DNA of 64,000 nucleotides from Thermoplasmata archaeon (GTDB taxonomy: Archaea > Thermoplasmatota > Thermoplasmata > Thermoplasmatales > GCA-001856825), in contig JAJZYT010000003.1 in the NCBI GenBank assembly GCA_021797915.1, positions 812 to 64,811 on the forward strand, read 5' to 3'. Made by a program: the position numbers and the translations under genes. The notes under the pieces were generated by a model. The model was not told the DNA's origin, made no database searches, and saw only the letters and a list, made by a program, of their open reading frames with translations. Of the stretch, positions 50,374 through 53,690 are shown piece after piece. The stretch's first letter is position 1. Each line of letters opens with the position of its first letter.

Positions 50374-51147
50374 ATGACCAAAAACGAAAGTATCGGATCA
50401 CTCGAGAAGACAAAAAAAGGCATAATGAAAGCGACTATCGTCTTCATCTTAGCTGAGTCCCTATTCCTTTTTTGTTTAATCCAGATTTTCTTAGGGAACA
50501 TTACCAACCTTCCAGTTCTCCATTTGTACTTCTACCACTATTTTAGATTTATGTTTTATGAACCTAACGGCTCGATAGGACCCAGTAGCAACTGGGTTCC
50601 TTTCGAATTTGATGCTTTCTTGGCTTCACTGGCGGGATGGCAAACTGTAATGTTTCAGAGGGTAGTGTGGTTAATTACGACTATTTTTATGATTCTCTCT
50701 ATTACAACTCCGGCAATATACTTAGTCAAATTTCATAAGTTAAATAGGAGAATTTGTGAAATTAGGCCCACTTTTGGTGAAAACATCCTTCCACCTATAA
50801 AGTTGAAGAGTCTGATTCCTCTTCTTGCAAGTGGAACAGTTGTTGCATACTATTGGGTAAAGATACTCTTAGGCAACATCATTTTTCTTCCTGGGTTCCA
50901 CTATATATTTGGTACCTATTTCAGAGGATATCTCGAAGTTGTTAACCCCTTTTCAAACGATGGATATCCAATTCATCCAATAGCCGTTGCTCAGAATTAT
51001 CATTTTGCAGTCTACTTCATCTGGGCAGTATTTAATGTCTTTTCAGCAGGCTTGGCTTTGATTGGAGTCGTGACTTACTCTCTAATGGAAAAGAAAACAA
51101 GTAAATCTACTGAAACCATTTCTTCGTCTAGACCAGAAATTCAGTAA
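50374..51147 (+). CDS. hypothetical membrane protein with internal duplication
   Basis: 257 aa made of two modules of about 120 aa (…AESLFLFCLIQIFLGNITNLP… and …YYWVKILLGNIIFLPGFHY…). Each resembles the 131-aa protein at 36218. It starts 1 nt after the G1 peptidase stop. Confidence 0.6.
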   Translation: MTKNESIGSLEKTKKGIMKATIVFILAESLFLFCLIQIFLGNITNLPVLHLYFYHYFRFMFYEPNGSIGPSSNWVPFEFDAFLASLAGWQTVMFQRVVWLITTIFMILSITTPAIYLVKFHKLNRRICEIRPTFGENILPPIKLKSLIPLLASGTVVAYYWVKILLGNIIFLPGFHYIFGTYFRGYLEVVNPFSNDGYPIHPIAVAQNYHFAVYFIWAVFNVFSAGLALIGVVTYSLMEKKTSKSTETISSSRPEIQ

Positions 51148-51390
51148 ATTCAAATAGTGAGCATCCTCTTCGGTGGGGCGCCGAAAGCTGAGAGAATTTC
51201 TGAAAACTTGGCTCACCCCAGGATGAACGGAGCAGTATATTCAAACGGTTCTGACGCTCACGTGGATTACACAAAGATGGAGAGGGAGCTCATTGAGAAA
51301 CTGAAGATAGACTTGTAGTGATATCTATAAGAGATTTGCGGGGAAGTCAAGAGGGGGAGTTAGTAGTCTTTCATAGGTATCCGCCTTAAT

Positions 51391-52609
51391 TCAGATTCCA
51401 GTGGAAGCTATCCTCCCCCTCTCCGTCGGTCTTCTTTCCCTGTATGGTTTCTTGTTTTTCATGATTGAATATGTGTGGTAGAGGAGCCTCTTCCCCACAG
51501 CGATGTAAGCAGCATTGTTGTTCTTCCCTTTCTCTTTCTCTCTCAGGAACAGTTCATAGAATTCTCCGGACATGTGCTTCACAAGTGAAACTGCGCTCTC
51601 ATGGACAGCGTTGGAGAGATAGGCGTTTCTTATCTTTGTCACTCCCCTTGGAAATGCTTTGCCCCCAGATCCTTCCATGTCAGGGCACTTTCCCACCATA
51701 GCTCTGGAGCTTCAGTGCTGAATCGAACTGCTCAATTCTGCCGATCTCTGAGACTATTGATGCAGAATTTACCTTCCCCATTCCCCTTATGTCAGAGAGG
51801 TATGCTACCGTCTGATTGTTCTCAGATCTCTTAATGATCTCTTTGTCAAGCTCGGAAAGAGTGTCAATCTCCTGCCTCAGTCTCTTCACATTGATGCGTA
51901 TCCTCGTTGCATATGCGTCTTCAATATCGGGTATTCCGATGCTCTCGAGTGCAAGTGCATGAACCTTCTCCGCTGAGCCGTCCTTTGTGTGGTTCCTGCT
52001 CTCCATGTTCATATCTGCCTGAATATCCTTGACAGAAGCTGCTGAGATATTCTCGGGAGTGGTATATTTCTCCAGTATCATGAGGGCTGTCACGCTATCC
52101 AGTGAAAACATTGTGCCGAACTCTGGAAAGATTGCAGAAATGTCTGCCCATATGAAGTTCTTTATCCTGGTGATGTTGTTGCTTACAATCTTCCTCAATC
52201 TGGTTATTTCAGACAAAGGGTCCCTCTCGTGTCCCTTTCTCTCCAAGTACTTCTTGCTTTTCCATGGTGTAGAAGCAAGAATATGGGCATCTTCTGGATC
52301 TGATTTTTCCTTTCCTAAGTTCTCCACGCCCCTCATGTTCTTCGCGACCCTTGTATCCACGCAGTAAACGGTGAAACCGTTCTTCTCAAGGAAGTGTTTC
52401 ACAGGCAGGTGATAGTTGGCTGTCGGGTTCACAAATATTCCAATCACTTTGTCACCGTTGCTCTCCTCCAGCACATGTATCTTTTCCACAAGGCTTTCAA
52501 GACCTGATCTGTTGTTCATTATTCTTCCGGACCATAGCACAATTTCGTTGTTGTTCTGCACTTCCGCCTGATGCGCATTTTCGTGTGTGTCTATTCCTAG
52601 AGTAAGCAT
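51391..52609 (-). pseudogene. IS110-family DEDD transposase, split by a +1 frameshift near 51680-51699
   Basis: Frame A (51680..52609) has LGIDTHENAH, DPEDAHILA and IRGMGKVNSASIVSEIGRIEQF, and ends ...SYGGKVP*. Frame B (51391..51699) continues DMEGSGGKAFPRGVTKIRNAYLSNAV..., the conserved Transposase_20-type C-terminus. Confidence 0.8.
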
Positions 52610-52868
52610 CTATATCATCCTCTGCCTATCTCCTTACGCGGGGAGTACTGATCAGACCACACACATCTATGACTTCCCGGGCGGGAAGAATGTGCCGATT
52701 AGTTAATTTGATCAGGGTGGATTCAAAGCTGAGTGCGCCATTGCACACAATCACTACATACCACCCCTCCCCACATCCGGATTCGGCTTACCCGAATCAC
52801 ACAAGGATATAGGTTGTATCCCTTATAGCACTCAAAATAGGGCGAAGTCAGGGTGTAAGGCAGTTAGT
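52610..52868 (-). ncRNA. candidate IS110 bridge-RNA-like structured leader
   Basis: The non-coding left end upstream of the transposase contains several strong hairpins: 52780-52798 (GAUUCGG-GUAAG-CCGAAUC), 52733-52748 (GUGUGC-AAUG-GCGCAC on the minus strand) and 52672-52687 (CUUCC-CGCCCG-GGAAG). The extent and function are inferred from the family only. Confidence 0.35.
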
Positions 52869-53690
52869 CTAGGCTCTGTCGACAGAGGGCTTCTCCCCGA
52901 CCGTTGACTTGTTTTCCGCGAATATGTTTTGGGCTTCCTTGACGGTTGCCTTTTCATGAACGATCGCCCTGATTGCCTTTATCATTGCAACAGGTTTTTC
53001 ATTTTGCCAAATGTTTCTTCCCATATCCACCCCGACGGCTCCCTCTTGGAGGGCGTTATAGACGAGGTTGAAAACGTCCGTCTCGGTGTTTAACTTTGGC
53101 CCACCGGCAACAACCAGTGGTACTGGCGTTCCATCGGCTACCTTCCTGAAATTCTCGCAATAGTAAGTCTTCACAACGTGCGCACCTAATTCAGCCGCAA
53201 GTCTGCAAGCCAGAGCGAGATACTTTGCATCCCTCTTCTCAAGTTCCTTACCTACTGCGGTTATTGCCATGACCGGCATACCAAAGTCTTCCCCCTGGTT
53301 GACCAGTTCTCCGAGATTGATAAGTGACTGTTTCTCATGTGGTGTCCCAACAAAGATAGACAACGCGACTGCTGAAACGTTGAGTCTCACAGCATCTTCC
53401 ATGGATGTAGTAATCTCTTCATCGCTCAAGTCCTCTTTGAGAACGCTCGCTCCTCCAGAGACCCTCAGCAGGATCGGAGTATCCCACTTGGGATCGATGG
53501 AAGATCTCAGGATGCCCCTGGTGACTGCGACGGTGTCTGCGTATGGTAACAGCGGTTCGAGCATCTTTCTTGGATTTTCTAGTTTGTGCGTTGGTCCCAT
53601 GAAGTATCCATGGTCGGCTGCGAGCATCACGGATCGTCCAGTGGAAGGCTTTATCATTCTTGAAATTCGGTTACTCATTCCCCAGTCCAT
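52869..53690 (-). CDS. class I aldolase, DhnA/FbaB (DeoC/LacD) family
   Basis: 273 aa with MLAADHGYFMGP and the Schiff-base Lys context AHVVKTYY. The function could be FBP aldolase class IA or ADH synthase. Confidence 0.78.
   Translation of the reverse strand: MDWGMSNRISRMIKPSTGRSVMLAADHGYFMGPTHKLENPRKMLEPLLPYADTVAVTRGILRSSIDPKWDTPILLRVSGGASVLKEDLSDEEITTSMEDAVRLNVSAVALSIFVGTPHEKQSLINLGELVNQGEDFGMPVMAITAVGKELEKRDAKYLALACRLAAELGAHVVKTYYCENFRKVADGTPVPLVVAGGPKLNTETDVFNLVYNALQEGAVGVDMGRNIWQNEKPVAMIKAIRAIVHEKATVKEAQNIFAENKSTVGEKPSVDRA

Follow-up and report, generated by a model that had tools for sequence, protein, structure and literature searches.

A probable left-end bridge RNA in an ISFac9-like IS110-family element from a Thermoplasmata archaeon

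The element, its limits and its transposase gene

The window, i.e. the whole 64,000-nt stretch of contig JAJZYT010000003.1 from a Thermoplasmata archaeon analysed here, carries on its minus strand a DeoC-family aldolase gene, a non-coding stretch and an IS110-family transposase gene, in this order (Table 1). A previous reading of the DNA letters, hereafter the sequence-only reading, had considered positions 52868–52610 as non-coding, and they indeed contain no coding sequence, with the DeoC stop codon (52869) on one side and the ATG of the transposase gene (52609) on the other. The same reading had assigned all of these roughly 260 nt, up to 52868, to the left end of the element. Conservation with relatives begins only at T52830/G52829, where ...TTTTGAGT meets GCTATAAGGG, so that the left end comprises 220 nt (about 52828–52610) and the remainder is host flank.

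The limits of the element were set at the points where conservation with 15–20 relatives begins and ends, and independent copies of related elements diverge exactly at these points. The relatives used were 15 elements from Thermoplasmata genomes (48–59% protein identity) and 9 from metagenomes, and the 220-nt left end could be aligned to 19 other left ends from relatives with 48–63% protein identity. Two elements found at more than one location agree with these limits, namely the P0015 element, present at at least three sites with three left flanks and three right flanks, and the P0083 element, present at two sites. At the right end, the terminus ...CTCTTATAGA (51324) is followed by TA and then by host sequence TCACTACAAG. 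A left end of only 100 nt, starting at 52709 where copies L001 and L015 diverge, was discarded, as the relatives conserve 120 nt more upstream. In these two copies (L001 1–987, L015 1–1333) unrelated sequence replaces everything upstream of 52709; the 5' hairpin and the entire target-binding loop are gone, and the donor loop and the gene are intact. They could be the product of truncation, of rearrangement or of a chimeric assembly.

Table 1. Features of the IS110-family element and its surroundings (positions are those of the window, given in the 5' to 3' direction of the minus strand).
Feature	Position	Strand	Remarks
DeoC-family aldolase gene	stop codon ends at 52869	minus	5' of the element
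Host flank	52868..52831	minus	about 39 nt; adjoins DeoC; holds the left target
Left target flank (host DNA)	52841..52831	minus	CCTATTTTGAG, then core T52830
Whole IS110-family element	about 52830..51322	minus	includes the core dinucleotide at both junctions
Junction dinucleotides	left T52830 G52829; right T51323 A51322	minus	putative core
Left subterminal inverted repeat	52828..52815	minus	CTATAAGGGATACA
Probable bridge RNA, 198 nt	52817..52620	minus	as matched by the covariance model
P1 closing stem	52813-52807 with 52631-52625	minus	CCUAUAU with AGAUAGG; 97.9% of cells paired
5' hairpin	52798-52780	minus	GAUUCGG-GUAAG-CCGAAUC; both-side changes in 7 of 8 pairs
Px enclosing helix	52774-52767 with 52645-52638	minus	GUGGGGAG with CUCCCCGC; 90% of cells paired
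Predicted target-binding stem-loop (P3, P4)	52766..52715	minus	stems 99–100% paired, compensatory changes
Target stem-loop, outer stem	52766-52761 with 52720-52715	minus	
Target stem-loop, inner hairpin	52748-52733	minus	
Loop 1, 5' strand	52760-52749	minus	UAUGUAGUGAUU, complementary to right flank
Loop 1, 3' strand	52732-52721	minus	UCAGCUUUGAAU, left-flank sense
Predicted donor-binding stem-loop (P5, P6)	52713..52650	minus	
Donor stem-loop, outer stem	52713-52709 with 52654-52650	minus	GAUCA with UGAUC
Donor stem-loop, inner hairpin	52688-52673	minus	
Loop 2, 5' strand	52708-52689	minus	AU-C-GGCA at 52699-52693, complementary to TGCT-AT of the left-end start
Loop 2, 3' strand	52672-52655	minus	AUAGAUG at 52670-52664, equal to ATAGA of the right-end terminus with TG
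Transposase (recombinase) gene, N-terminal 309 codons	52609..51680	minus	premature stop at end
Transposase gene, C-terminal 102 codons	51699..51391	minus	+1 frame
Right non-coding end, 67 nt	51390..51324	minus	conserved block CTCCCCCTCTTGACTTCCCC and right inverted repeat
Right inverted repeat	51338..51325	minus	CAAATCTCTTATAG
Right target flank (host DNA)	51321..51314	minus	TCACTACA

The subterminal inverted repeats are imperfect and span about 12–14 bp; 10 of the 14 positions of CTATAAGGGATACA agree with reverse-complemented CAAATCTCTTATAG, compared with a mean of 10.6 across 21 elements of the family. At the junction of a circular form the repeats would abut a 3-nt spacer, TATAG-(G/A)TG-CTATA, which in the letters of the window would read ...CTCTTATAGA-TG-CTATAAGGG.... 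The TATA-like motifs CTTATAG and CTATAAG at both termini belong to these repeats. The right-end block CCCCCTTGAyTCCCC (51341–51360 in the window, and also present in relatives) lies about 20 nt before the terminal TAATCTnnTATAGG, and the TTGAC inside it resembles a bacterial -35 box, which is odd for an archaeal host.

We infer that the core is T(G/A). Its exact extent and the position of the crossover are deduced from the junctions, since no empty site was found: in an exact look-up of the DeoC protein, all 10 places among the matches listed carry the insertion sequence (24 contigs). An empty site would be expected to read ...CCTATTTTGAG-T(A/G)-TCACTACAAGTC..., and the window contains no second copy of the element. 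Intact alleles of the element (L010, L075) show an additional TA at the start of the left end (52828/52827 in the window; GCTATATAAGG versus GCTATAAGG).

The transposase contains the PF01548 domain (E = 5.9e-22) and the start of PF02371. Its gene is interrupted by a frameshift caused by one additional G (GGTGG[G]AAAG at 51692–51694 on the minus strand), a base that intact alleles do not have. The N-terminal part is 99% identical to the intact 405-aa protein P0001. The intact 405-aa allele (P0001/P0121, 99% identical) occupies the same chromosomal position in other assemblies, and the frameshifted allele is likewise widespread among assemblies. The presence of intact and frameshifted alleles at one locus in different assemblies thus indicates a population polymorphism of a fixed insertion. 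Programmed frameshifting was ruled out, as the additional G is missing from the intact alleles and the site shows no recognised slippery or stall signal. Because its own gene is frameshifted, the copy in the window needs the recombinase of an intact copy, and only with such a recombinase could it be mobile.

Regarding the catalytic residues, the invariant S314 lines up with the serine motif ESGSS of IS621. At the second position of DEDD, an Asn (codon 61, about 52429–52427; ..VNPTANYH..) stands opposite E60 of IS621 and does not vary among 40 clade members. ISFac9 also has Asn at this position, and the 30%-identity cluster representative listed with ISFac9 in the table of Durrant et al. has Glu. 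Because of this Asn, the catalytic equivalence of the clade to IS621 is an assumption; the elements clearly have moved despite it, since multiple sites are occupied.

Fold and covariation of the left-end RNA

To describe the left-end RNA, a covariance model, termed R1, with 198 positions and 50 pairs was built from 18 relatives from Thermoplasmata genomes. R1 gave a single match in the window, at 52817–52620 on the minus strand (146 bits, E = 9e-35), and scored 135–193 bits in the relatives, including L039, which was outside the seed; on the opposite strand it yielded partial matches of at most 22 bits. A scan of positions 50800–53200 against Rfam 15 (E ≤ 10) returned nothing relevant, a result that carries no weight, as Rfam 15 does not recognise the genuine IS621 bridge RNA either. 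In L039 (1149–3333), the full-scoring RNA (1149–1345, 178.6 bits) is separated from the IS110 transposase gene, which starts at about 3000, by a nested DDE-type insertion sequence whose two ORFs (395 and 187 aa) run on the opposite strand.

The consensus fold consists of a closing stem (P1), a 5' hairpin, and a helix (Px) around two stem-loops, each with a large internal loop. In the model-based alignment of 21 sequences, 93.2% of the cells were paired and 30 of the 50 pairs showed changes on both sides, compared with 39–52% and 4–8 pairs, respectively, in slid controls; none of 500 shuffles reached the observed pairing values. MAFFT alone had misaligned the 5' hairpin and the 3' part of Px, and these segments were realigned with the covariance model. 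RNAalifold applied to 20 left ends predicted 31 pairs, 17 of them with compensatory changes, and revealed the unexpected long-range closing stem. Three pairs of P1 changed on both sides (AU↔GC, CG↔UA), and so did two pairs of Px, the helix that encloses both binding stem-loops.

Three of the four hairpins predicted in the sequence-only reading showed compensatory changes in the relatives. The GAUUCGG/CCGAAUC hairpin (52798–52780) and the GGGUGG/CCACCC stem (52766–52761 with 52720–52715) around GUGUGC-AAUG-GCGCAC (52748–52733) are conserved as proposed, and the CUUCCC/GGGAAG hairpin was also recovered, at 52688–52673, one base away from its proposed location. The fourth, a CUCC...GGAG hairpin immediately 5' of the ATG, lacks conservation: family members instead use CUCCCC for Px, with GGGGAG upstream as its partner, and AUAGG for P1, with CCUAU close to the 5' end as its partner.

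The stable folding anticipated for this region was also observed. The 198-nt RNA has a minimum free energy of -78.8 kcal/mol (z = -4.82, none of 200 shuffles as good), and its minimum free energy fold recovers every consensus helix; the z-score was -2.58 for the whole 259-nt stretch and -2.94 for the antisense strand. Furthermore, two G.U pairs are invariant on the transposase strand. These invariant pairs, the strand-asymmetric model scores and the weaker antisense z-score identify the transposase strand as the RNA strand. Neither an archaeal promoter nor a terminator could be recognised. No T-run follows the RNA, which, if unprocessed, may thus be no more than the 5' portion of the transposase mRNA.

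Loop sequences, insertion-site flanks and element ends

The sequence-only reading had postulated that the internal loops should be complementary to the flanking target and to the element's ends, and both matches were found. The 3' strand of loop 1 has the sequence of the left flank through the T that precedes G52829, and the reverse-complemented 5' strand (UAUGUAGUGAU) has that of the right flank. In the window, nine contiguous pairs join UGUAGUGAU to ATCACTACA at 51322–51314 and comprise the right flank and core A51322, and the left flank CCTATTTTGAG plus the core T agrees with UCAGCUUUGAAU at only 7 of 12 positions, with TTTGA.T beside the core. The second copy in L017 has TTACTATA at the position of the right target flank.

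Permutation tests with non-redundant elements confirmed that loop 1 follows the insertion site. Over 12 nt and 18 elements, the 3' strand matched the left flank at 161 positions (107.8 ± 6.2 in permuted pairings), and over 11 nt and 16 elements the reverse complement of the 5' strand matched the right flank at 108 positions (57.7 ± 6.3), values not reached in any of 20,000 permutations in either case. The seven core-distal positions of the left flank alone gave 75 matches versus 36.5 ± 5.1 (0 of 20,000). Strand-swapped controls showed no comparable excess (63 versus 53.4 ± 4.5 and 53 versus 50.5 ± 4.8). Moreover, position 2 of the core covaries with the RNA, being A in the window and in L023 and G in most others, and the multi-site elements sit where both strands of loop 1 match; for example, two unrelated loci occupied by the P0083 element have CATGTT-TG-ATCTCA in common. 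The predicted target of the RNA encoded in the window is about CAGCTTTGAA-T(A/G)-TCACTACATA, and target-like sites are no commoner in the window than expected by chance.

Several observations concern the host DNA at these sites. The right flanks of the window (51321–51260) and L017 (1305–1360) are alike past the guide match, at 27 of 35 positions and then patchily up to about 60 nt, so that the target seems to lie within a short repeated sequence. A window ORF (51157–51318) stops within this region of similarity (..KLKIDL, then the stop codon). A Pfam search for a repeated target gene among the flanking ORFs (the 53-aa ORF, the 191-aa ORF of L017 and the 169-aa ORF of L015) returned no match. 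The P0022 element (L050–L059) is always located directly downstream of a DUF772/DDE_Tnp_1 transposase gene, and its right flanks vary by locus (FtsZ or ribose-5-phosphate isomerase); this element may use the end of another insertion sequence as target.

Loop 2 matches the ends of the element. Across the family, its 3' strand carries AUAGGUG, equal to the right terminus ATAGG-TG; on its 5' strand, AU-(bulge)-NGCA is the complement of the T-G-C-N-A-T that opens the left end. The AUAGAUG/ATAGA version is confined to the element of the window and its closest relative, L060, and AUAGGUG/ATAGG is found elsewhere. The N of the RNA tracks position 3 of the left end: where this is T, N is A or G; where it is C (L030), N is G; and where it is A (L060), N is U. 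The last base of the 5' guide is G where L021 has C before G. In total, four covarying substitutions were informative, a small number because the donor loop and the ends are highly conserved. A 2-nt AC insertion is present in L011 in the 5' strand of the donor loop, at about 52704.

The loop matches and the covariation-supported fold support the bridge RNA reading, and we consider it very likely that positions 52817–52620 (minus strand) encode the bridge RNA of an ISFac9-like IS110-family element in a Thermoplasmata archaeon. By analogy with IS621 and the IS1111-type seekRNAs, the RNA would be transcribed and bound by the recombinase. Loop 2 would act on the junction of the excised circle as loop 1 does on the target, and the recombinase would catalyse the exchange of strands at the T(G/A) core.

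Three other explanations were weighed against this one. The RNA could be a mere 5' leader of the transposase mRNA that controls translation or stability without any guide role, as its location directly 5' of the ATG with no terminator in between would suggest. The 3' strand of P1 ends about 15 nt before the ATG, beside the purine-rich GGCAGAGGAUGA, and regulatory roles for the non-coding ends of IS110 elements were proposed in older literature (cited in PMC11208160). However, a leader would not need sense copies of the left flank and antisense copies of the right flank in one loop, varying with the insertion site, nor a second loop that matches both ends of the element, and we regard this explanation as unlikely, even though an additional regulatory role may accompany the guide function.

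Recognition of the target and the ends by the protein alone, through the 12–14 bp inverted repeats, would reduce the loop matches to a by-product, e.g. captured copies of the target. The core is indeed flanked by imperfect inverted repeats, and the targets of related elements share motifs such as CATGATT that could reflect a preference of the protein. Such a preference does not account for the core-distal flank positions, which are variable between elements and still track the loop (75 versus 36.5 ± 5.1), and the matching segments, of opposite polarity, fall exactly within internal loops of stems that covariation supports, a pattern published as characteristic of bridge RNAs and seekRNAs; hence, we hold a protein-only mechanism to be very improbable. 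As for a functional RNA transcribed from the opposite (plus) strand and acting as an antisense regulator of the transposase, that strand folds somewhat better than its shuffles (z = -2.94), but the z-score of the sense strand is stronger (-4.82), R1 scores 135–193 bits on the sense strand against partial antisense matches of at most 22 bits, and the two invariant G.U pairs, together with many other G.U cells, exist only on the transposase strand. In addition, the 3' ends of both guides lie at the core on the sense strand, as in IS621, and not on the antisense strand, which makes an antisense regulator extremely improbable.

Comparison with IS621, IS1111-type seekRNAs and ISFac9

The bridge RNA of IS621 and the IS110 group was described by Durrant et al. 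2024 (PMC11208160) and Hiraizumi et al. 2024. IS110 elements have a long left end and short inverted repeats, and IS1111 elements a long right end and long inverted repeats; the IS621 RNA, located in the long left end, is built of a 5' stem-loop, a variable target loop and a conserved donor loop, and its donor guide is also discontiguous (PMC11208160). The element described here follows the same general plan and resembles IS621 in its long left end upstream of a recombinase with RuvC-like and Tnp domains and in its short right end. The first loop is likewise variable and target-matching, the second conserved and donor-matching; each loop pairs with opposite strands on either side of a short core, and one donor guide pairs across a bulge. 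R1 run on the IS621 RNA with filters off gave no match (best 6.4 bits, elsewhere in the locus), so the likeness is one of architecture and not of sequence.

The order of the guides differs between the two systems. In both loops of the element studied here, the right half is represented in antisense on the 5' strand and the left half in sense on the 3' strand, whereas in IS621 the 5' strand is the left-half sense and the 3' strand the right-half antisense, as given in PMC11208160 and checked on a genuine copy (L079). This reversed order was observed in all elements examined. With either order the 3' ends of the guides lie at the core and the RNA-DNA geometry is the same, but the polarity of the element relative to this geometry differs. 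Further differences from IS621 are target guides that are both long (up to 10–11 nt, versus 9 and 4 nt), inverted repeats of about 12–14 bp instead of 2–3 bp, a three-way junction formed with the closing stem and the enclosing helix, a T(G/A) core in place of CT, and the Asn as second DEDD residue. A junction promoter of the sigma-70 type is inapplicable in an archaeal host.

The IS1111-type seekRNAs of ISEc11, ISPa11 and ISKpn4 carry the complement of the top strand first, and their RNA lies downstream of the transposase gene (Siddiquee et al. 2024, PMC11187229). As in these seekRNAs, the top-strand complement is located here 5' of the bottom-strand match, and the subterminal inverted repeats, although imperfect, are in the 7–17 bp range of IS1111 elements. 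Unlike in IS1111, the RNA is upstream of the gene, in the long left end, and the 67-nt right end contains no match to the model. The IS110 and IS1111 groups lie at about the same distance from the protein; IS1111, IS1383 and IS5708 give the C-terminal domain of P0001 a slightly better score than IS621 does, which is weak evidence. The clade therefore combines the RNA location of IS110 with the guide order and repeat length of IS1111, and its circular form departs from that of IS1111 only in where the core lies with respect to the RNA gene.

The closest named element was ISFac9 from Ferroplasma acidarmanus (ISfinder), with which P0001 shares 47.5% identity over 343 residues (phmmer E = 2.6e-90) and this clade shares the NPTGNYH motif; for ISFac9, we used the sequence given in the trimmed alignment of the supplement to Durrant et al. 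2024. ISFac9 is a separate element, and the one described here has its own guides and targets. Supplementary Table 5 of Durrant et al. 2024 (PMC11208160) gives 'Detected Bridge RNA End: LE' for ISFac9, a member of the clade, so an archaeal left-end bridge RNA in this clade is of a kind already known. No description of the RNA structure, guide order or targets of ISFac9 was found in the text of the literature searched.

We tentatively propose, as a possibility about as readily doubted as believed, that the ISFac9-like elements of Thermoplasmata represent a third, undescribed bridge-RNA arrangement, with a left-end RNA, guide order and repeats of the IS1111 type and an Asn-containing recombinase. 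Durrant et al. proposed that the RNA moved relative to the crossover site during the IS110/IS1111 split (PMC11208160); if our proposal is true, the clade could be the intermediate expected from such a move. Guide order and RNA position are separable, and the two published arrangements are thus not the only ones, which bears on the divergence of IS110 and IS1111 and on whether IS110 recombinases are linked, as has been proposed, to archaeal Nop5/box C/D RNPs. The analysis also provides a testable model of an archaeal bridge RNA, with its limits, fold, four guide segments, core and predicted target. R1 can be used to annotate RNAs that Rfam currently misses, and the clade comprises compact recombinases from acidophilic and moderately thermophilic archaea whose long target guides, both of 10–11 nt, could serve as scaffolds for genome editing.

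In the E. coli IS621 locus used for comparison (L079), the start of the left end is tandemly duplicated, as a 72-nt repeat, at 1601–1849. The repeat begins with TGTATT..., right after the DNA of the left target guide (ATCGGGCCT), and it looks as if guide-encoding DNA had itself been used as a target.
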